A stretch of 63,463 nt of DNA, counting the filler, from Asterionella formosa (lineage: Eukaryota), in the NCBI GenBank assembly GCA_002256025.1. It is 7 parts of 7 records of this genome, joined end to end, with 100 filler letters (N's around TTAATTAATTAA, not from the genome) between each part and the next. Parts side by side here need not be neighbours in the genome. Positions count along the whole stretch, not along the records: positions 1 to 8,990 come from NKIB01011315.1; 6 more parts are not named here. One strand, written 5' to 3'. Both the position numbers and the translations under genes were made by a program. How positions within the stretch are numbered: the first letter of the stretch is position 1; every line of letters begins with the position of its first letter. The notes under the pieces were generated by a model. It was not told the origin of the DNA. It saw only the letters and a list, made by a program, of their open reading frames with translations, and ran no database searches. Shown here piece by piece: positions 1 through 58,615 of this stretch.

Positions 1-74
1 ACATGTGGCTGATGTAACATCATCAGACATTTTCCAAGAAAATCAGCTCATGTTATTTGTAACCGCTGTTGCTC

Positions 75-2069
75 ATGGCGATGAACGGTCACTGCACCAT
101 TCTTTGGTCAACTCAAAGTGGACGAGCAAAAGCATGTGCGAGGCGAGTGACGAGACTAGTAAAGGAGCGATCAACGTTGTCGGTTGATTATCATTCGACA
201 TTTGATGAGCTGGGCTGGGCCGGCCTACAATCGCAACGAAGTCGCGTTTGGATCCTGCTCGTCAGTACTACAGGAGACGGGGAGCACTGCGATTCGATTA
301 AAGATACGTGGAAGAATTTGTAAGTTATGCAATTAAATGGGGTCTTTTTCGAAAAAGCGACGAACCAACTCACTTTGTTGGTACAAACATTCATGATGTT
401 TTATAGACTAAATAAATCACTCCCGAAGGAATTGTTTTCCGAAGTACGATTCGCCCTCTTCTGTCTTGGAGATAGAGCTTATGGAGCTCAATTTTGTGCT
501 GCAGGAAGAAAGTTAGCCGCTAGATTGGTGCAACTTGGTGCCATTCCCTGCTGTGAGGTTGGGTACGGCGACGATGGGGCAAATGGTGGCGTCTTCGGGG
601 ATTTTGATCGTTGGTTAGACGAATCGCTTCTAAAAACGCTTCCCATGAAAGAGGAAGTTGAAGTTCTTAAAAATATAAGTAATTACTCAATTGAGGTTTT
701 ACCCGTGGTGGGTCATCAGATGAATCCCGAACAATTTGATGATTTTCGGTCAGGTGCATGTCCTTTGACGGCATATTCGTACCGTGGCGGAACGAGAATC
801 GACATTACCACCCAATCGACTAAAGTGCCTCGAACTGGCAGGGTAGTCTCTAACATCCGCATTACAGAAGAATCTTGGCAACAAGATACTCGGCACATTT
901 CCATTCAACTGATAAACGAGCCAAATGAAACAGCGCCGTTCCTTGCGGGCGACGTTTTGTCTGTGTTTCCTTCAAATTCGGTTGAAAATGTCATGAAGTT
1001 TCTTAGAGTGCTCCCCAAATCTATTCAATCAATGGCAGATTTTACGATTAAAATTAATGGCGAGTCACAAAGTGGTGCTGTTCCATGGCCTCGGCAATGC
1101 ACACTCAGAGGAATCTTGACACATTGTGCTGATATTCAAGCTTTTCCAGAACGAGAAGACTTGAGGTCCCTTTCGTATTTTTGTTCCGACAAAGAACAAA
1201 GCTCCAAACTTCTATCTCTGAGTGAAACAACTGGAGCACCACTATACAATGAATATATTGTTCGAGAAAAACGAACCTGGGCTGACGTTTTGCATGATTT
1301 TGATTCCATCAAGATTACTGTTGACCACCTTCTGATGCTCTTATCACCTATGCGACCGCGACAATTTAGTATCGCCAGTGCTCCTTCATCCATATTGGAC
1401 CTATGTGTGGCAGTCGTGGAAGGCAAGACGCCATTAGGAAGGTCGTACCAGGGACTTTGCTCAACATTTCTCAGAGAGCTTAGTGTTGGCGACCAAGTTA
1501 ACATGTGGATTAGCCCAGGATCGTTCGGTCGGCTACCCTTGATAAAAGCACCAAATGTTAAACAATTCGAGACTCCGATCCTATGTATTGGTGCTGGTAC
1601 GGGTATTGCCCCTTTGCGAGGATTGATCCAAGAGCGTGAGCGAGTACGGCGACTAATGAATGTTGATACCGACAATGACATCGACGAAAGTGCCCACGGT
1701 GGAGCGCCTGATAACATTTTAGTATTTGGTTCTCGAAAAGAAAGCATGGACTTCTACTACAAAGATGAGTGGAGCTCAATGGCCGAAAATAACAATTTGA
1801 AGCTATACACTGCGTTCAGTCAAGACAACCGGCTTAAGATTTACGTCCAGCAAGTGATTCGTGATGCTCAAGGAGGCAACTTTATTACAAGCCACATACT
1901 TGAGAATAATGGAGCTGTTTTCATTGCGGGTGGTGCCAAAATGGTACGAGCCGTTAAAGACGAAATTTTTGAGTGTTTAGCCAAGGCACTAGGTGACGCG
2001 GGGGAAGCCCAATCGTTCTTGAAAATGATGCAACGACAAGGTAAGTTTGCAGTCGAAGCGTGGAGTTAA
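75..2069 (+). CDS. NDOR1: NADPH-dependent diflavin oxidoreductase 1 (Tah18/NDOR1); exons 75-319 and 407-2069
   Basis: Exon 1 has flavodoxin motifs (ILWSTQSGRA, VSTTGDG). A GTAAGT...TAG intron at 320-406 restores the frame (WKNL-LNKSLP). Downstream motifs: LGDRAY..FCAAG, RPRQFSIAS, GLCS, IGAGTGIAP, VFGSR, KIYVQ and C-terminal EAWS. Confidence 0.9.
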
Positions 2070-2424
2070 TATACAGAAGTTTTGACTGCCGCAATAGCCT
2101 ATTTTTGCGGGTAGTGGTATGGTTGTCACTCCCATTCATCAGGCCAACAGTGCTATAATTAGGTTTAAGGAATTTTTTCCAAAATTAAAATTCTTTCTTC
2201 AATGCATCAAGCTGATTCCTTTCCGGTACGCTATCAAATTATCGAGAAATCGTTGAGGTCAACAGATGGCATCAATCTCATTTGAAGAAAGGCTTTGAAT
2301 AATAAAAGTTCTACATCCAGCCAAGATGATATGCGATACATCCCAGAATTGTTCACTATACCAAGCTAGCAGTCACAGGACCGTTCATTTCCCCCAACGT
2401 ACCTCTCCAGTAACATGTGTCTTT

Positions 2425-3174
2425 TTAATTTTTAGGAAACATATCCACTAAATTGTGAAATCCTGGTTCCAGCACGACTGCTGCACCACATGCCTTCATT
2501 GCAATGGATAATTGCGTTTCATGATGTGGCTTGCCTTGAGCTTTGCAAGCTTCAACAGCTTCCGGTAGTGCCACCCCAACAGCCGTACATCCCGCTGCCA
2601 CTGCCGCTCGAATGTCATCGGGTGTGTCTCCTACCATAATAACGCTACTAGATGGCGACACGCCCAGTAGCTCACATGCTTTGATGACGGGAAAGGGATT
2701 TGGCTTGGGTGGTCCATCTTCCATACAGACACACACATCAAAGAAGGATTCGAGTTTGAATTGTTTTAGAAAAGTTCTACAGTCCTTGCGGGGTCGGCCC
2801 GTTACTACTGCCATACCGGTAGAACGTCTTCGCAATTCTTTCATGGTTTCCATAGAAGGAATGAGTGTTTCCAATTCACACAGTCCCTTCGTCGAAGCTG
2901 TCCCTTGGTAGAAATCTTCAAAGGTTTCTGTGACCTGCTCTAAGGTGATATCCTTCGTTCCGTTCGGGTCTGATTGAATGAGATCCAATGATAGGACCCA
3001 ATCATTGTTGCATCCGCCTCTTGCCTTCCTGTCAGCAATAGTGGCCAATGTAATAGATGTTGCGCCATAGAAATGGCATGTTGCAATAATGGCCGCTCGG
3101 TAAGATCCAGAGACTTCGGCCATGACACCGTCCATGTCGAGGAGGAGAGTTGATCCAGTGATGATTGGAGTCAT
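2425..3174 (-). CDS. HAD-superfamily (subfamily IA) phosphatase, TIGR01548-like; candidate histidinol-phosphate phosphatase
   Basis: Motif I LLDMDGV followed by AEVSGSYRAAII, motif II VVTGRP, motif III KP, motif IV MVGDTPDD; intronless 249-aa ORF. Confidence 0.8.
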   Translation of the reverse strand: MTPIITGSTLLLDMDGVMAEVSGSYRAAIIATCHFYGATSITLATIADRKARGGCNNDWVLSLDLIQSDPNGTKDITLEQVTETFEDFYQGTASTKGLCELETLIPSMETMKELRRRSTGMAVVTGRPRKDCRTFLKQFKLESFFDVCVCMEDGPPKPNPFPVIKACELLGVSPSSSVIMVGDTPDDIRAAVAAGCTAVGVALPEAVEACKAQGKPHHETQLSIAMKACGAAVVLEPGFHNLVDMFPKN

Positions 3175-4320
3175 GGTGCTTCTGATGGCTAGTTTGTATT
3201 ACTGTCGTGACCAACACGAAGAACACGGCAGTGCTCTCGTCCGATCGTTAGTTACTATATTGAGGGTGATGTCGCCAACGACTCATAGCAAATGCGATTT
3301 TGCCTTCCATCAAGATCCTGGTGGGTCTGTGTCTGAGGAACGCAAAACCATGACGATAATTTTGAATCGTCATCACACCACTACTGCAAATGCTGACCAG
3401 CATGACGTCAACAAACGCTGTTAATATCTGAGTACGGCGCACTACAAAAGAGCAGCACGGACCGGATCATCAGATTAGGTATTATATGTGCGTATGTAAA
3501 CCAGCAATCCCCACCCTAGCTATCGTCTTGCTTTTCGATGAGAACTGTGGGTGTCTAAGTAATTTTTGGTATCTTTTAAGTAATTTAATATTTAGGGGCA
3601 ATATGGGGCACAGCGGATTTTCGGCAGTCAATTTTAGGTTTGAGCAGCAGGGACCATCGAGCAACGTCAGGAGTAGAATTTTCATGGGAAAAAGTTTGGA
3701 CACAAAACATGACAATAGCCTTCATCAATGTTCTGAAGAGGAAGAAATATGTTTCATAATTAGTATACTCAACCATGGCGGGAACTCAAATATGACAACA
3801 ACAATGAACAAGCACATACCTGTCCTCTCTTCCTTATTGAATATGAGTTAATGCAGAACACCGGTTCCATCATGTTCCGGCTGCTTTGTGGAGTTTGCAA
3901 TAGCTCATTGAGATTGACGACTTTTTGTTGTCATTGTAGAAGATTATGCAGAAGTAACAAAAGTAATATTGTGATTAGAAAGCAATGAAACAATACTATT
4001 GTAGAGTAGCGGAAAAAAGCCAACATATGAGCACTAAAACTTGCTGCCAAGATCTGATTTGAGATAGTGTGGGACACGTAGAAACATGCTACAAAATTAT
4101 AGTTAAAATTTAACGGCTGATCATATCTGACGAAAATACCGGTTCAATGACGAGATGGAAGCCTAACTTTGACCTACCATAACGTTTCGAGTTTTGATAC
4201 CCAACGACTGATTGAGGTCGCTTCTGAACAATCATTAATTATTTATCACTACATATCAAATCTAGCGAAGTATTTGACCGGAAAGGCTATCGGAAATCAA
4301 CTGAAAGGGGAACCGAAATT

Positions 4321-5286
4321 TTAGTGCCTAAATTTCCTTGTATCCAGTTCAGCCATAGTTGGAGACTGACCAAGCATCAAAACATCACATGTGTGTTGCT
4401 CACACATGTACACATTGATGACACGAAAATATGTGTTAGCACAAGTGACACTGCTTGGAGGAGTTGATTTTGCTACTGTAGCCTTTTTATTTTTTGTTGC
4501 CTTCTTTACAACAGGAGGAGGAACAGGCAATGACTTATCATCGTCATCACTGCTATTTTGCGATTTAAGAACAAAGTCAGGGTCTTTGTCTGCTACATCT
4601 GGCTTCCCTTTCTGTGAACAATCAGAGTCCATATCAACATTGCCACGACTCTTTTCTTCATCTTCAATAATAGATTCATCATTATTGCTGTTGTTGTTGT
4701 GGATGACAATCACTTCATTATAAGTGATCATAATAGAAGGGGGGTATAGTTGACCAACCAGCCAGTCTCTTTTCAGTAAACGGAAAATTAAGGAAATAGT
4801 GATGTCCTTCTTGCCATTCCTGTACCCTGACACTTTAAATCTCACGCAAATTTTTCGAAGTACCTTGACAGATATATGTTTTTTGTCAATTCCTTTTATA
4901 TGAATCAATCCCAGCCCAATTTCATCCAGAACAAAGTCATCTGGTACTATGAGCGAGTTGACGAACTCATCAATATTGGCTAGACAACCGGGAAAGGGTT
5001 TCCTCTTTTCAGGGGTACCCATCTCGTCAATGTCAAGAAGTGTAACAGCAGTCGTTGCAGGTATTTTATTTTCAGATGGATCCATCTCGTCAACATCAAG
5101 TGTACCAGCAGTTGGAGGTATTTTCTTTTAAGGTGGACCCATCTCGTCAATGTCGGTTGCACCAGCAGTAGACGACTCAACAATATCTTCGACGTCCTCA
5201 TCAGCTACAAGGCATTGATTCTTTTCCGAAATGGGAATATCGGCGGCATCAGAAGTTTCAGCTGTATCCACTACTTTGCTGCTCAT
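4321..5286 (-). pseudogene. Repeat-borne ORF (copy A), probable transposon accessory protein, with one premature stop at 5128-5130
   Basis: ORFs 5128-5427 and 4321-5085 are in the same frame and are separated by a TAA where copy B reads GAA. It carries DEMxP-ENKIP peptide repeats, and 4382-5678 is homologous to 61270-62690. Confidence 0.6.
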
Positions 5287-5485
5287 TGCGCCAATTAATC
5301 GAGATATACTGTATACACGGTAGTCGATGTTGGAAGACAGGTATAGAGATGAGCGGACTACTGATTCTTGTTTGACTGACAAAGCTGAAAGGTAGTGTAT
5401 ACAGAGTACCATATATATATTTAACAAAAAATAGTTGGCGCAATATTTAATAATGTTATGCTTGCGTATTTACAGTTATTTTATC

Positions 5486-5678
5486 AGTGCCAACGGACAT
5501 GATACACAGTGATCAACGGCTGTATCACTGATACAGCATTGGTCAGGGGTCGAAAAACTGTATCAGTGATACACCCATGATACACCGGTGATCAGACCAA
5601 AAAAACCATTGGTGATACACAAAAAAAACCAAACCGCCATTTTTGTATCATTTTTTGGCGATGATACACCAATGTCGA
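5486..5678. mobile_element. ~200-bp MITE-like module rich in TGATACA/TGTATCA repeats (second copy 61270-61469)
   Basis: Many TGATAC(A/C) units in both orientations. The copy at 61270-61469 has imperfect CAGT...ACTG inverted ends. Confidence 0.45.
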
Positions 5679-6060
5679 CAAATAACAGAATGATAAGAAC
5701 GGCCCTAAGTAAACGGCAGTCAATTGAGGGGCTATAGATATCAGTAATCAAATTCCCCTAAATAAATGGCAGTCGATTTCGGCAATAAAATCTAGGGGCT
5801 ATTGAAAATATTGAAGGTAGTTTGGCAGTCGAAAAACGGAGCATATGAAATATACAAAATATGTTTTATATGATGGGCAATTGAAGGATTGAGTAATCCA
5901 AAAACTGTACATATGAAATATACAAAATATGTTTTATATGATGGGCAATTGGCTAGTTCGCATCCAACATACAAACTATCTAAAATAGGTTTTCAATGTT
6001 AACTGAAAGGGCAATGTAATGGCGAAAAGCGCGCCGATAGCTAGTTTGTGAATTGCCTAG

Positions 6061-6209
6061 GTAATACCCTACTCGGGAGGAGTCTGCCTACTCGCAATCT
6101 TGTGTACTCGGCTTGGCGGGCGCCACTCGTTCGGTCAACCTACTCGCGCCTTCCAAGCCTCGAACACAAGAATACTCGCAGGCAGTCTCCACCCTCAGTC
6201 TTGTATTAC
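6061..6209 (-). other. 149-nt rod-like hairpin with periodic CGAG/CGAG tandem G-A motifs (putative structured RNA/ssDNA or foldback element)
   Basis: Nested inverted repeats GTAATAC/GTATTAC, GGAGnCTGCCT/AGGCAGnCTCC, TCTTGTGT/ACACAAGA, GGCTTGG/CCAAGCC and GGCGC/GCGCC, interleaved with (A)CTCG direct repeats on both arms. Confidence 0.75.
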
Positions 6210-7419
6210 TACCTTCAGCAATCATGCCGCAATGACAGCATGAATTTGCTTTGATTCTTCTGCCATTGTGCCCTACCATATTGTTCATGTTTTTATCTTG
6301 CACTTTTTAGATTTGATGGGAGTTTCTTTAATTGCTCTTTCCACAGCATATCTTGCATACCTGTTCTCATTCCCATGAAATAATTTCCTTGCTACCATTT
6401 CATTTAGTATCACTTCATCAGTATCCACTTTCTGGGTTTAAACAGTATCATGTAGGTCACTCCTTGCTTGGTAAGATCAATTCAGTATTGAATTCAGTAT
6501 TGAATTGATTGACCATTTCCTTGAACATTGTTATAAAAAGGAGAGACAATTATGTGGTGAAATAGCTTATATGTTTACAATTTCAGGTTCAAAAATCTAA
6601 CACTGGACAAGGCAAGCGATTGGGCCATCCTTTTGATGTAGCTACAATGATTGACTTTGAAATGATCCAGCTTTTCTCATTTCTGAAACCAGTTCAAATT
6701 CTGTTTTACCATTTGAATTCAAAGTTCGCAAAGAGTTCCTTCCAATTAGTCTTGAAGGTTCAGCACATTGGTGATATTGTTGAACCAGTTGTTGAGAGCA
6801 AGATTGAGTCCCTCATAAATTGTTATGATATTTGGGTCAAGATTGCTCTCCATCACTGCAAAGTGATCATGGCAATGAAAACCACTCACAACCCTTTTTC
6901 CATTGACCTTCAATTTCTTGCACGTTTGCGGTTCTGCATTTTCCATCGGTTAGAGACAATGAACAAGTCTCATGTCAAATCACAGAAGCTTTTCCGGTAT
7001 GCCAGTACAAGTTGAACGAATGTGAACAATCAATAGATTTGGTTGTGCATTGACTTCTATTGAAGATTCACTGCAAGTAGCTAAAAATGGCTACGCTACA
7101 GGTAAGCATTTGACAGAACAGATTGCTACCACCTGCTCATCCTGCTGGTATCTAAATAAATTTTGAGGTTTAATAGAAAAAAGAGGTTTTGGGTAAAAAT
7201 TACAAAGAATGAATCATGTGGGCTGTGTCAGAAATATATGAATATTCTTACATCTAATTTAATTTAAAGAACAAATTTATTCACCATATTTGGAGTGCTC
7301 ATATTCTTTCAACTGAAAAAAACAATTCAGCTGAAATGATGTAACAGACTTAAATCAAGTCAAAGGACGAGTTTGTAGGCAAGAATCTATAAATAAGCAG
7401 GGTGGAGTCTGCTATTACT

Positions 7420-7652
7420 CAAGGAAGGTCCGGTAATCGAAATATTTAGCTTAATCTTTTCTCTATTACAAAACGTGTATTACAGGACCTTCTCAATGGT
7501 ACCCTGCAAGTTGCGATAGTTTTGCTTAGATAAACAGTTTAATATTGGATAAAGAAGCAGCAAGTTGCGGTAATTGTTCTGAATCTAAAAAATTAGCTAT
7601 CGCTATACTGTGTTAAATGGTCTATTTAAGCAAAATGACCGCAACTTGCAGG
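7420..7652. mobile_element. Cluster of three short MITEs: 7420-7493 (family of 36135-36208), partial 7502-7556, and complete 96-bp 7557-7652 (family of 46621-46716)
   Basis: TIRs GCAAGTTGCGGTAATT / AATGACCGCAACTTGC and GAAGGTCCGGTAAT / ATTACAGGACCTTC; internal sequence is shared with copies on other contigs. Confidence 0.7.
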
Positions 7653-8990
7653 TTTCTGCATGACTTCAAGAATCACAAACACCTCCTCATCTGCAAGTTG
7701 CACATGTAACCTTCACCATAGTCAAACGTTTGTATTTTCTGGGTTTTTTTTAGTCCTTTTTCCTATACTAGGTAAAATTTCTTCTTCGAGTTTCACCGAA
7801 CTTTTCGTGGAGTCTCTCAACAAATGTCTACAGCACTTTATGGTACTTCTTGATTATTTTGGAAAAATCGGCCATTGAAATACCACTCAAGCAAAATTTG
7901 CCACAACAATGCTAAATCAACCAATTGATCGACAAAGGTGGCACTTTTGGTACTGCCGGTGACCTCATAAACATGGTAAATGATAGCAGACTAGAGGAAC
8001 TAATGATTAGCTGTTTGCTTATTGTATGTTTTAGGGCAGTTGGATGATCTGATGGATCAGTAAGCCGTTCACTAGATAATTTGCATGCATTTGGCAAATA
8101 AAAAGTACATCTCCGAACAATCCACCTGAGAATCGCGTTTGCCACTCCTCCATGGCTACATCTTTAGATACAATGACCCGTTGTTGCATCCTTTTTCCCT
8201 GCTGATCTGCTGATTATTGTGCTGCTTCAAACCTTCGCCAATCGTTCCCTTGTATGGTTGCCAATGTCCGACTTGAAGGATATTTCGACTTCCATTGCGC
8301 AGCTTATCATTCAAATCAACCCATTCTTCAAATCATAGTTATTGCTGCTTCCGCAGGAAAGAAGAGGAATGGAAATGTACAACTTCGTGAGATTCTGGTG
8401 GACAAAGTTGTGCAACAATATCCGGTCTGCTTCTTACTGTTGGAAGGTTACTCTGTTTGATTGTCACATCCGGGACAATGTGCACAATTCCCTCACCTTC
8501 AGACGACTATCTAAACACTAAAATTATGCTGCAAGACAAGAAACCAAGCAATCAAGCAAGACAAAGGGAGGACAAGGACATCAATTCCGGAGAGGTGTGA
8601 CAATGTAAAAATTTATGGTGGGGTTATATTATTCACTGCGCTAGCTATACCGTGTTGTAATCAGAGGGAGAAAAAAGTCTACAAAGGTTTCTACATACAG
8701 ATATATTATGATGAACGATGAATCTCCGAAATTATGAAATCACCGCGATTTGCGATTTTCGACTTCTTCATCTCTTGGTGAATCTTTGATGAGAGATGAT
8801 GAAGAGAAACAGCAGCAATCGACCCCTGCCTCATTTCGCTTTGGTCGATCGGCACCATGAAACAATTTTAATTTTAGTTCAGGAAACACAAGACTGATTA
8901 GGATTCTTTTTCTATAATATACAATTGCCCATTTTATCAACAAACGCTTGAAGCATAAAAGGTTGCATATGTGCACTATGGCTGGATGCA

Positions 8991-9090
8991 NNNNNNNNNN
9001 NNNNNNNNNNNNNNNNNNNNNNNNNNNNNNNNNNTTAATTAATTAANNNNNNNNNNNNNNNNNNNNNNNNNNNNNNNNNNNNNNNNNNNN
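8991..9090. other. Artificial contig linker (N44-TTAATTAATTAA-N44); equivalent linkers at 18070-18169, 27153-27252, 36234-36333, 45312-45411 and 54390-54489
   Basis: The same 100-nt spacer with stops in all six frames recurs every ~9.08 kb, and genes are cut at these points. Confidence 0.97.
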
Positions 9091-17925: not shown

Positions 17926-18169
17926 CTATACCTGTTACTGCGCTGGTACCACTTAAAAACTGTAAGCCACCGCTATGACGACTTTTGAACTGTAAGCCAC
18001 CGCTAAACGGAGTAAACGCACGGTTTGAACTTAGTTTGGAAGATACGTTAATTATTGTCACGAAGGAGTNNNNNNNNNNNNNNNNNNNNNNNNNNNNNNN
18101 NNNNNNNNNNNNNTTAATTAATTAANNNNNNNNNNNNNNNNNNNNNNNNNNNNNNNNNNNNNNNNNNNN

Positions 18170-27152: not shown

Positions 27153-27252
27153 NNNNNNNNNNNNNNNNNNNNNNNNNNNNNNNNNNNNNNNNNNNNTTAA
27201 TTAATTAANNNNNNNNNNNNNNNNNNNNNNNNNNNNNNNNNNNNNNNNNNNN

Positions 27253-36208: not shown

Positions 36209-38442
36209 AACTCAGGAACTTCGTATCATGGACNNNNNNNNNNNNNNNNNNNNNNNNNNNNNNNNNNNNNNNNNNNNTTAATTAATTAANNNNNNNNNNN
36301 NNNNNNNNNNNNNNNNNNNNNNNNNNNNNNNNNTCTATTGTTCTTATTGTTGGAAACAAGGCGCTTTCTATTGTTTCATTGTGGTTACTGTGGTTGTATA
36401 CCCTTTTCTTCCTTGGTGTTATTCGCCCTGCGTTTGAACTTGAAAATGCATTGTTTGATATGAAATGGAAAAAGGTCTTGTTTGTTAATAACCAGCCATC
36501 ATCTGACTCTGTGAATCTTCTTCTTCGCTTCCAGAAAAAACGAGGACTCTGTTGCTAGCCGGTTCCTCTGGAAGAAACAGGCAGGCATTTTTTGTTTCTC
36601 CTTGTCATCACAGAAAGGATGCATCTGAAAGTTCGAGAAATATATGGTAAGCAGTTAATATTTTGGGAAATGGAAACAAGTCCTATGTTACATTGTTGTT
36701 TCTCTGCACCATCTTTTTCTTCATCTTGTGTTTGGAACTGTGATTGATTGTTGTTGTAGTTCCTTTACCTCCATTTTGTTTCTTCCTCTTGCTTGTGCCA
36801 TTTGGAATTGGAACAGTGGTCAGTCATGAGTTTACTCTGCGAACCTTGTTCTTTTTCAACAGACAATCAATCTGTTTTTGGCAGGGCAGGGTTGAAACTT
36901 GGGAATAATGAATTGCGTCATGCTCGGTGTCAGACAGGCTATCGATCATTTGTTATTCGCATTGTTGAAAGGATTCCTCTGGTGCAAACAAGGGGACGAA
37001 TGTAACAAGACATGGTAAGCAAGTGCAATGTTTTATTGCCTTTGGCTGATATTGTTTGCTGTTTCTGGTTGTGGTGGATCTACTCTCCTCTCCTATTCTC
37101 CTTCGTCTTGGTTCGGAATTGTTAGCGCATGCATTGATTTTTTGTAATGAATTAGAAAAATGGCTTGATTGTGTGCTTGTTACTTGTTGATCACAAGCAA
37201 ACTTACTCTGCAAACACTGTTCTTTGTCTACAGACAATCAATCTGTTGAGCGAGGGTTTTGTTGGGAATCAGGCGGCATGGTAAGAACAACGAAAACGAT
37301 GCCTTTGTAACAAATGCTTGTTCATGAACTTACTCTGCGACTGTTGTTCACTGATTTGCAGACAATCAATTCGATGACAATCAATTTGATGAGGGCTGGG
37401 TTGGCCATTGGGGAACATCCCTCTTTCTACAACAGACAATTAATTTGAGCAATGAGAATGAGCAAACAGCTCATTTGCTTTGAATTGATCTACCGGAAGT
37501 AGTAACATGGACTCCTGAAAGTATGATTAGCCAAGCAATCTTATGAATGGTTACAGCATCCAACTGCAAGAATGAACATGCATTGCTTGTCTTATTGGTT
37601 TGAGAATCGCGTTCTATAGAAAGTATCATTACAAACTACATAACGAAGCAATTAAATTGATTGACTTTGCGATTGTAGAATTAAATTGAAATGTTGATTG
37701 GTTACACATAATTATTTGTTTGACTAGCAAATATTTTTGTTTAACCTTGAGGTATTAATGTGATCAAAGTGAAGATAAAATGGGAGCAAACAAACAGAAC
37801 TAATTTTAGTCAGCCAGAGTGAAGAATATTTGTGAACGGAAATGTTTCGAATTGTAGAGAAAAGAAGTGTATTATATAGATTATTACTGAACTAATTTTT
37901 CTTCGTGTCACCAGAAAATATTGTCAGTTGGCCCCAAAAATTATGTGGGTTTCTATAATAATTATGGAAGTTATTGAAGCATTTCTAGTTCACTCCGTTC
38001 ATATATATTGTATGATGCATCATATTTTTTATGGATGTCCCCTTAAATTATGTACGAAGCTAAATCGTCGTATTGGGCCACCCAAATAATTAATTTGGGA
38101 GATCATATTTGACTAGCGGTTTTTTTGTGGCGGCTGTACCAGTAATCGGCGTTGTAGATGTAGAGGGCTTGCAAATACATATTGGTATGTACGCATGATA
38201 AATATATTTGATGGCTGCAAAATCAACAACCCTGACCGCCTGGTATTACTTCAATGTAGTAACTAGTAATACTGATGGTCGTACATTATTCACGTCTGGA
38301 TCCTTTTTGTTTCATTCCACCTCAATTCGACGTGGTTATGATGGATATACCGATTTTTTAATGTATACGGAAACTACAGAGGATGGCAATAAGCATGCAG
38401 CACATCACGAAACTGATTCCATTTTGAGTGAGATTGCTGAAC

Positions 38443-42254: not shown

Positions 42255-42657
42255 NNNNNNNNNNNNNNNNNNNNNNNNNNNNNNNNNNNNNNNNNNNNNN
42301 NNNNNNNNNNNNNNNNNNNNNNNNNNNNNNNNNNNNNNNNNNNNNNNNNNNNNNNNNNNNNNNNNNNNNNNNNNNNNNNNNNNNNNNNNNNNNNNNNNNN
42401 NNNNNNNNNNNNNNNNNNNNNNNNNNNNNNNNNNNNNNNNNNNNNNNNNNNNNNNNNNNNNNNNNNNNNNNNNNNNNNNNNNNNNNNNNNNNNNNNNNNN
42501 NNNNNNNNNNNNNNNNNNNNNNNNNNNNNNNNNNNNNNNNNNNNNNNNNNNNNNNNNNNNNNNNNNNNNNNNNNNNNNNNNNNNNNNNNNNNNNNNNNNN
42601 NNNNNNNNNNNNNNNNNNNNNNNNNNNNNNNNNNNNNNNNNNNNNNNNNNNNNNNNN
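42255..42657. other. Internal scaffold gap (N run)
   Basis: N run without the TTAATTAATTAA linker. Confidence 0.97.
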
Positions 42658-45116: not shown

Positions 45117-45568
45117 AATATCATGAGCTTGACTGCTGTGATGATGTGAGTCGATGGAAATGGGATACTTCTTGCCATCAGATACCTGGTCCGTACAATC
45201 AAAAGTTTGTTGATTTGTTGTTCTCCAGCTTTAATTTCATCTCTGAAGCAAACCTCGATTTTTTTGTGTACCAGGTGCCTCATAGTACCTCCGTACCAGG
45301 TACACGGGGACNNNNNNNNNNNNNNNNNNNNNNNNNNNNNNNNNNNNNNNNNNNNTTAATTAATTAANNNNNNNNNNNNNNNNNNNNNNNNNNNNNNNNN
45401 NNNNNNNNNNNGCTGTAAACGCTTAAATAAAGATTTTAACCATATCCTTCGATGCCAGCAAGCAATACCCTACTACAGGAATAAGTTGATGCAGCAGTTT
45501 AGTGAGTCGTGTCTCAAGAGAACATCCTCTTGCCCATAGTAAATTCAAGATAGGTATTGATCATCGGC

Positions 45569-53395: not shown

Positions 53396-54553
53396 TCTAA
53401 AGTGGTTATCATTGAAAGTCAATATTATTAAATCTAGTACATCTGGTGGAATGTTTCGAAAATGTCATCGTCACATAGGGGCAATATTTTGTTCTTATAT
53501 ATTTTCTTTTTTATATTTTATTAGCCTATATAAAACCACCTTTATACTCAAATTCACCAGCATCCATCATACTTTTGCCTGATCAGCGATTTGGATGGGT
53601 GAGAAACACCAGCCAACGCATTAATTTAGTTGCCGCATCATCAGTAGTATCAAGAACAACAAAAAATCATCGCTGTGTGTAATCCCAACATGCCTACTCC
53701 ATCCAATCTTTGACACTAAGCAATATCTGTTGGGAGGATAGAGCTTTGGTGGAGGCCTGCTTGTCAGAAATGCAAAGATTGCTGAGGAGAAGGTAAGAAA
53801 ATTAGGGCTGATTTCAGAGTTATCAGAATCCTTGGCGCCTTCATTGTTGATTGTCAAATGTCATTGCTAGAATGTCCTCTAATGATATGAATGTCTACTT
53901 TCATAAACCTCCCGAAGTAGGCCCAGTTTGAGATTTACTTTATTATCAATACATACAGAAAGGCATGAATAAAAAATAATCTTGGCAATGGGGTCTTGGG
54001 TGTATCTTTGATCCATCATCATGTTTGGAGACTGGAGTGATTTGGGATTCCTGTATAGGAAGGAGGCTGCTAAGTGCAGGTGCATACACTTGCAAGCAAA
54101 TTTTCCTGCTGTTCCTTTGAGGTGTCCAGCCAGCCATATCCAGAAATCCTCTTGTTAGGAGGACACCATTTGTTAGGAGGACAAACTATTCACTCTATTT
54201 ATTTGTAGAAATTGAATTAACAAATATAGACTTTAAAGTGTTAATCAATGCATCTACTGCTCCTTGATTCACAACAGTAGCTGTATTGTTTGTTTTCATT
54301 GGCAAGCTTGATTCACAACAGTAGCTGTATGTTTGTTTTCATTGGCAAGAGCAACCACATGATGATGGACCTATCAATTTGTTGCAACGNNNNNNNNNNN
54401 NNNNNNNNNNNNNNNNNNNNNNNNNNNNNNNNNTTAATTAATTAANNNNNNNNNNNNNNNNNNNNNNNNNNNNNNNNNNNNNNNNNNNNATTTTGGGAGA
54501 AACTCGTCTCCTTTTGGTAAAGAACTGAAGTTCAATGTACCCAGAAAGGGAGG

Positions 54554-58135: not shown

Positions 58136-58207
58136 GCTCGTGTGGCGCAGTGGCAACGCATTTCACTTGTAATGAAAAGATCCCCGGTTCGAACCCGGGC
58201 CCGAGCT
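58136..58207 (+). tRNA. trnT-UGU: tRNA-Thr (anticodon TGT)
   Basis: Cloverleaf: acceptor GCTCGTG/CCCGAGC (one mismatch), D-loop AGTGG, anticodon arm TTTCA-CTTGTAA-TGAAA, T arm CCCGG-TTCGAAC-CCGGG, followed by TTTT. Confidence 0.93.
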
Positions 58208-58615
58208 CTTCTTTTGCTCATTTATCATTTTTTAAATACTTGAATTTCCTTTTTGCATGTACCTGGTACCAATAGTCAAAGTACCAGTACCCTTCGTATT
58301 GCTTGTAAATGGTAGACAACAATCTACTGGTATACCAGTACTTTGTTAGCAAAGCATCAATCAAGTTAAATAGGCTACCAGTATAGATGGTCTGCAAAGA
58401 CTAATAATACTTGATGCTTAATGGACATGCCCTTTTGCTACATGCTTTTCAACTTTTGACTTGCTTCTATTAATATTTCACTCCTTACCTTTAATTGCAG
58501 AATTGCTTAATTCCTGGCAATGTCATTATATAATATTTATACTACTTGAAACCTCCTCATGAAGTCATCAATCCCTAATTTTTGTTTTGTCACTTCTCTT
58601 GATGTAGTAGGTACT

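Follow-up and report, generated by a model that had tools for sequence, protein, structure and literature searches.

A periodic CGAG-motif hairpin at the edge of high-copy DNA in Asterionella formosa: a candidate transposon end structure

A stretch of 149 nt in the diatom Asterionella formosa raises the question of why one imperfect hairpin should carry the same four-letter motif over and over on a single strand, and whether it is read as RNA, as duplex DNA or as a folded DNA strand. The DNA analysed (GCA_002256025.1) is a window of 63,463 nt made of seven parts joined by 100-nt fillers, and the hairpin-bearing part, window positions 1-8,990, is NKIB01011315.1. The window represents nuclear DNA of a eukaryote and contains ordinary genes, the families found in an ORF scan including FAD-binding reductase, LCAT, UDPGP, HAD and thioredoxin. 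A tRNA-Thr (TGT) gene at 58136-58208 is its sole RNA family match, and an Rfam search of the whole window at gathering score returned that one tRNA and nothing else. Paired 44-N runs 12 nt apart recur every ~9,080 nt (8991-9090, 18070-18169, 27153-27252, 36234-36333, 45312-45411 and 54390-54489) and one 403-N run lies at 42255-42657; these look like masking or scaffolding, not biology.

The fold and its repeated motif

Folding of the 149 nt at 6061-6209 gave one long imperfect hairpin on either strand, so that the hairpin claimed in a first-pass annotation of this DNA is real. The RNA fold of the - strand reached -83.0 kcal/mol (z -10.75) and that of the + strand -65.1 kcal/mol (z -7.76), with 0 of 200 shuffles folding as well in either case, and the DNA folds of the same stretch gave -32.7 kcal/mol (+) vs -39.0 kcal/mol (-). 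RNAfold formed 54 pairs in the - strand (30 GC, 22 AU, 2 GU) and 49 in the + strand. All four single-base mismatches of the - strand stem are same-base (three U.U, one A.A), and the longest unbroken helix of the fold is 8 bp.

A motif search found seven copies of CTCG on the + strand, at 6072, 6091, 6107, 6126, 6143, 6159 and 6175 (span 6072-6178), and none of CGAG on that strand within 6061-6209; the sequence also holds a degenerate eighth motif, CTCAG, at 6194-6198. The window's own rate predicts 0.23 CTCG per strand for this length (Poisson P = 5.6e-9 for the seven observed), and 100,000 mononucleotide shuffles of the 149-mer never reached seven, the highest count being 6. Successive motifs are 19, 16, 19, 17, 16 and 16 nt apart, and five of the seven are part of a longer TACTCG. 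CGAG, as the motif reads on the - strand, is a favourable context for tandem G.A pairs. In the - strand fold it stands squarely opposite another CGAG at two stem sites, 6091/6175 and 6107/6159. The same facing recurs at the apex, 6126/6143, though RNAfold favours another register there, and the outermost site is degenerate, with 6072 set against the CTCAG of 6194-6198 and a 1-nt bulge. The arrangement described at first pass, CGAG opposite CGAG on the - strand at 16-19-nt steps with a bulged fourth site, is therefore present in the fold. Steps of 16-19 bp amount to ~1.5-1.8 helical turns and place the motifs off any single helix face.

The hairpin had also been called strand-specific. The motif is indeed confined to one strand; the difference in folding energy between the strands, on the other hand, is unexceptional. 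Palindromes bearing 18 random substitutions served as a null, in which the strand difference has a standard deviation of 8.8 kcal/mol (RNA) or 4.6 kcal/mol (DNA), and the hairpin's own differences of -17.9 kcal/mol (RNA) and -6.3 kcal/mol (DNA) correspond to ~2 and ~1.4 of these deviations. Since it lies within ~2 standard deviations of what random mutation gives, we rejected the energy asymmetry as proof of strand-specific selection, and for the same reason strand specificity is something we infer. The non-random feature of the hairpin is the repeated motif, not the energy asymmetry.

The outer edge of a high-copy DNA family

Positions 5300-6900 were compared at 80% likeness with Logan contigs from three DNA runs, each of a different study (X1, X5 and X7), and from one RNA run (X20), which yielded 14,019, 628, 584 and 329 matching contigs, respectively. 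Contig depth summed along the sequence, which is not copy number, is high over 5300-6217 and falls abruptly between the bins 6164-6217 and 6218-6271. The fall in this summed depth (again not copy number) is from 473,110 to 4,676 in X1 (101-fold), from 6,478 to 37 in X5 (174-fold), from 933 to 6.5 in X7 (144-fold) and from 688 to 4.0 in the RNA run X20 (174-fold). The outer foot of the hairpin is thus a sharp outer edge of high-copy DNA. To the right, 6272-6900 is moderately repeated, at ~5-15x the depth of bin 6218-6271; it contains a 17-nt palindrome at 6476-6509, and 7 nt at 6460 are missing from most related contigs.

The contigs also reveal what other copies have at this edge. Behind 6209 they read CTTCAG(C/T)AAT, after which agreement falls to 0.53-0.6 (29 X1 and 8 X20 contigs), so other copies have in common a hexamer and differ in their flanks. 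On the + strand of our copy this boundary hexamer occupies 6215-6220 as TCAGCA and reads TGCTGA on the - strand. The window holds 41 such hexamers in both orientations, and the chance of finding one within 12 nt of either hairpin end is ~0.016. One X7 contig (record 32) covers 6171-6533 with 5 differences, showing that the same insertion exists in another study's sample.

DNA folds of the wider stretch 6040-6230 (-43.5 kcal/mol, z -6.5, for the - strand; -36.0 kcal/mol, z -5.0, for the + strand) carried the stem outward. Beyond a small internal loop, a closing helix pairs ATTGC (6052-6056) with GCAAT (6218-6222), and the full stem of the present copy therefore spans 6052-6222 with the hexamer at its base. 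An extra TAC at 6210-6212 (+) is absent from the loose-end consensus of the 29 X1 and 8 X20 contigs mentioned above and is probably a 3-nt duplication. Minus this TAC, the basal helix AGGTAATAC/GTATTACCT would reach 9 bp and come to 1 nt from the hexamer; both of its partners are conserved in contig snippets of other copies. The hairpin is 3'-terminal on the CTCG strand and 5'-terminal on the CGAG strand. A TA target duplication (6058-6059 and 6210-6211) was considered and rejected, since the extra TAC accounts for it. We also rejected a MITE or foldback element standing alone, because homology extends at least 355 nt further inward (5706-6060), depth is high there and only the right side is a boundary.

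Among the origins suggested at first pass was an intermediate of an unknown mobile element, and a hairpin at a sharp high-copy boundary beside a common hexamer fits that suggestion. We think it rather probable that the hairpin forms the end of a DNA transposon copy that has undergone truncation and an internal deletion, one of a family very abundant in this freshwater alga, and that it serves in cis as an end signal on a folded strand. Several points count against this reading: the window shows one element end, and neither a second terminal hexamer nor a full-length copy was seen there; no recombinase, Rep or helicase family turned up in the window ORFs scanned; the energy difference between the strands is within the range of the null; the motifs do not share a helix face; and their pattern could also provide duplex binding sites.

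Cover by the RNA run brings in another explanation, in which read-through transcripts of the transposon fold into hairpin RNA and the mismatches shorten the perfect duplex so as to escape or tune small-RNA silencing. X20 does have contigs over the element, its highest summed depth (1254.5) falls in bin 6110-6163, and the 8-bp limit on unbroken helix would agree with such a role. That bin is not the highest in any of the three DNA runs, a weak hint given that contig depth cannot rank parts. However, the repeat-to-unique ratio of the RNA run (174-fold) matches those of the DNA runs (101-174-fold), and DNA carry-over or background thus explains the RNA-run cover. The contigs reveal neither strand, ends nor level, and hairpin RNA leaves unexplained a constant four-letter mismatch on a fixed strand. 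We consider this explanation very unlikely.

The least probable reading, to our minds barely credible, is that of a free-standing structured ncRNA gene or a protein-binding RNA element, both of which had been put forward at first pass. The strong RNA fold of the - strand and the suitability of CGAG for tandem G.A pairs would speak for it. Yet the hairpin has no Rfam match: at E <= 1, a search of 5000-7500 returned only MicX, at 19.5 bits vs a gathering score of 75 and at 5551-5657, outside the hairpin. Moreover, the same high-copy repeat runs on inward from the hairpin for at least 355 nt, the hairpin terminates at the boundary of that repeat, and this copy has lost a whole arm module (described below), which is unexpected in a working RNA gene. 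With Rfam silent on the hairpin and the depth ratio of the RNA run the same as in the DNA runs, neither the ncRNA gene nor the protein-binding RNA element finds support.

Truncation, other copies and the lost arm module

Inward of the hairpin, contig cover and loose ends define a retained repeat body at 5706-6060 (+), and 5706-6116 is covered by many contigs ~85-90% alike. Ahead of 5706, 24 X1 and 9 X7 contigs continue into a different upstream consensus. The homology of the family to our copy starts at 5706, and the copy is therefore truncated there, abutting a different repeat; the upstream consensus had 0 matches in the window at up to 3 mismatches, which means that the neighbouring repeat has not divided the copy in two. 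The body contains three direct repeats of GGCAGTCRA at 5715, 5768 and 5824 (+ strand, motif search; 5715-5832, in steps of 53 and 56 nt). The whole window has 5 matches to this motif vs 0.75 expected, three of them in this cluster, and a fourth repeat of the element stands in the family consensus upstream of 5706. These repeats may be putative arm-type protein-binding sites. A tandem duplication with a 68-nt period at 5829-5951 (+) consists of two 55-nt copies, 93% alike; the duplicated block is single in most other copies, which have different sequence ahead of 5843 and 5911.

The other repeat, of high depth and adjoining the truncated element, occupies 4385-5700 and has an inverted second copy at 62683-61272. 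The inverted duplication (4385-5679 vs 62683-61272) is ~90-92% alike and ends at 5679, and since summed depth over 5300-5677 is very high in every run, this neighbour is itself a repeat family. Its section 5515-5680 holds a 19-nt inverted repeat (5518-5536/5558-5576) together with several TGATACAC-type direct repeats, and the highest depth of X1 falls on it. An ORF in the neighbouring repeat, 4324-5127 (-), encodes repeated D(I/V)DEMG-like units; it matched no Pfam family and just 10 homologues, all unnamed or hypothetical. We rejected it as a partner of the hairpin, to which it has no visible link.

Other copies of the hairpin are known from consensus snippets and from depth summed over contigs rather than from full sequences. 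The listing leaves a further 884 loose ends and 39 joint inserts outside it. Among the strings listed, ten of at least 10 nt fall within the hairpin coordinates (255 nt); by hand count they hold CTCG eight times and CGAG not once, and they represent about three sequence types and hence are not ten independent observations. In these snippets CTCG recurs on the same strand and at the same spacing, with different stems between the motifs. In the copy type that continues after 6076, for instance, the segment before the next CTCG equals the window's in length and differs largely in sequence. A lone X5 contig covering 6114, 6118 and 6119 has C at all three positions, and the change at 6114 would create an extra CTCG at 6112-6115.

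Another of these sequences is a 30-nt consensus found ahead of 6118 in 64 X1 and 8 X7 contigs, which consists of ACTCG, 12 nt, CTCG and 9 nt. Against window positions 6119-6150 it forms a duplex of -16.4 kcal/mol, a value equalled by 21 of 2000 shuffles and by 1 of 1965 random 32-mers from the window. Alignment by hand gave two helices, one of 5 bp at the apex (GCGCC/GGCGC) and one of 9 positions that includes a single mismatch, and put both CTCG of the consensus opposite those of the window at 6126 and 6143. From this pairing it follows that 6119-6146 is the inner right arm in most copies and that its left-arm partner of ~30 nt has been lost here, leaving 6119-6150 (+) as an orphan inner right-arm module at the apex of the present copy. 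The loss was likely a deletion between GGCG repeats, and by this comparison of sequences the present copy would derive from a ~180-nt hairpin with five motif pairs. Of the motif set reported at first pass, the facing sites hold; the apex site needs another account, for with the left-arm module gone the pair 6126/6143 is made of two neighbouring right-arm motifs. Several further deletion joints within the hairpin and one strand-switch joint were found among the contigs, indicating that such damage is common. What the present copy adds is the point that the hairpin decays by losing whole modules.

It could be argued from this damage that the hairpin is a functionless palindrome, one that arose through errors of replication at the end of the element and is carried neutrally: deleted and rearranged forms are common, and the present copy is itself deleted. 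Under neutral decay, however, a single 4-nt motif would not persist on one strand and in matching places in copies with differing stems, and we hold this explanation to be highly improbable. The earlier argument that random decay cannot set the same mismatch in register is borne out both by the motif statistics and by the other copies, which keep CTCG and differ in their stems.

More weight, if still an unlikely account in our estimate, can be given to a duplex iteron array, in which eight TACTCG-like motifs, spaced by 16-19 bp and all pointing the same way, are protein sites on double-stranded DNA and the stems are incidental. All seven CTCG are direct repeats on one strand, five as TACTCG; the motif is kept in other copies in which the inter-motif sequence differs; and the GGCAGTCRA triplet forms a second set of direct repeats 230-350 nt inward. 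An array of this kind would nevertheless leave unexplained the arm-to-arm complementarity between the motifs (54 pairs) and the complementarity of the missing module to 6119-6150 with the motifs in register, and the spacing of the motifs lacks the helical phasing that would favour it.

Searches for relatives elsewhere gave little. Within the window, blastn of the 149-mer matched only itself and its own reverse strand. A metagenome scan with the 18-mer 6042-6059 gave 8 loci, none related, the best blastn match being 26 nt at 92% (L004, L007). Motif clusters in three of these loci (L003, L005 and L008) are one unrelated sequence with irregular CGAG and no comparable hairpin, and scans of viral contigs and of prokaryote genome contigs gave 0 matches.

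A proposed folded-strand end signal and its possible relatives

The transposon end proposed above would act in cis for a site-specific DNA transposon and be recognised once a single DNA strand has folded back on itself. We infer folding because only in a folded strand do the two strands differ and the motifs meet in register. Each CGAG/CGAG site would present tandem G.A pairs on one strand and tandem pyrimidine mismatches on the other, producing two unlike hairpins, and the difference between them would fix the strand and the orientation used by the element's enzyme. Cutting or strand exchange by this enzyme would take place at the hexamer, at the foot of the stem, and the two-fold symmetry of each CGAG/CGAG site would suit a dimer.

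As to the enzyme, no recombinase, Rep or helicase family and no Phage_integrase-type match was found among the 47 window ORFs scanned. By analogy, a hexamer at the stem foot fits either strand exchange by a tyrosine recombinase or nicking by an HUH Rep beside a hairpin. A Crypton-like tyrosine recombinase acting on the folded site, as integron integrases do at attC, and an HUH Rep of the Replitron or Helitron2 kind seem to us equally plausible, each a real candidate that we would not put ahead of all others combined; an enzyme of some other class is less probable than either. A more detailed version of this mechanism, doubtful as a whole, has a giant folded single-strand site serving as an attC-like substrate of Crypton type or as a multi-site dock for a Y1 Rep, with the mismatches selecting the strand and TGCTGA as the exchange point. 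Were it true, a eukaryotic transposon would for the first time have been shown to recombine via a structured single-stranded site. If the design does select a strand, it would provide a concrete cis element for finding how an abundant diatom transposon family moves, and would offer a way to learn whether tyrosine recombinases or Reps of eukaryotes work on single strands in folded form. The present copy, truncated and deleted, is not the one to study.

Several known systems resemble this end in part. CRESS-DNA and Rep origins carry a conserved TAGTATTAC-like nonanucleotide in the loop of a short stem-loop. The nonamer TTGTATTAC at 6201-6209 is similar and was rejected as such an origin, as it lies in the stem, not the loop, and its terminal 7-mer varies among copies (left foot variants ...GTTAAGACCC and ...GTGAAGACCC). 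In canonical Helitrons a short hairpin lies subterminally on the 3' side, and a CTRR 3' end comes no more than ~10-12 nt after it. A Helitron1 end was likewise rejected: the sequence after the stem here, TACCTTCAGCAATCATG, is without CTRR, and the stem, at 149-171 nt, is not short. Closer in design are Helitron2 and Helentron (PMC3627910; see also Helraiser, PMC4778049), with which our element has in common a hairpin near one end of a non-coding, high-copy element; the present hairpin is 3'-terminal on the CTCG strand, ~11 nt before the end of the common sequence. Helitron2/Helentron elements have asymmetric terminal inverted repeats plus hairpins at both ends, and compensatory changes in the end hairpins have been reported (PMC3627910). 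Their hairpins are short, the ATIRs measure 8-15 bp and the 3'-ATIR lies ~20-30 bp from the end (PMC3627910). In contrast to these short features, so far as the published text describes them, the stem here is 149-171 nt long (~180 nt ancestrally) and carries periodic identical mismatches. A 6-bp boundary hexamer is likewise foreign to Helitrons, and no RepHel was found among the window ORFs scanned.

Cryptons occur in stramenopiles, CryptonS being found in oomycetes and a diatom. Their two termini bear direct repeats of 4-6 bp, regarded as the substrates of recombination, and they lack TIRs (PMC3212892). The boundary hexamer would fit such terminal repeats, of which one is seen here. As differences, the word 'hairpin' occurs 0 times in the available text of PMC3212892, and no tyrosine recombinase gene was found among the window ORFs scanned. 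Replitrons, which encode a Y1 HUH Rep, move by copy-and-paste, have abundant non-autonomous forms in algae, and carry, at or close to each terminus, short direct repeats such as TAAAGG, with a palindrome placed in the right terminal sequence (PMC10288648). HUH enzymes recognise hairpins (PMC10288648). The Replitron palindrome is one of 11 bp with two mismatches, and in the available text of its report the author states that none were detected in any diatom (PMC10288648). The present stem is far larger than that palindrome, and no Rep gene is present among the window ORFs scanned.

Elements of the IS200/IS605 type have imperfect subterminal hairpins that are read on one strand only. In the left-end hairpin of minute virus of mice, a bubble of GA opposite GAA makes the arms unequal for an HUH nuclease (PMC1185569). 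As far as these sources describe them, both systems differ from the hairpin studied here, whose motif is symmetric and recurs periodically, in having just one asymmetric bubble or one extrahelical base, and both belong to viral or bacterial replicons. The integron attC site is an imperfect palindrome that IntI recombines as a folded single strand, with variable sequence and a kept structure; unpaired features tell its strands apart and set the orientation, and crossover takes place at the stem base (PMC5027507). The comparison with attC is an analogy of mechanism only: attC sites are bacterial and shorter and, as described in the available text, have extrahelical bases and one central spacer vs the 4-5 identical symmetric 2x2 mismatches here. 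No eukaryotic case of attC-like recombination at a folded site was found in the open-access literature searched. The same literature yielded no description of a ~180-nt stem with the same symmetric mismatch each 16-19 bp, with motif and strand conserved and stems varying. End hairpins are already known as signals of rolling-circle and single-strand transposons, but those are short, and the end design of this family is an unusual form of a known kind of signal.
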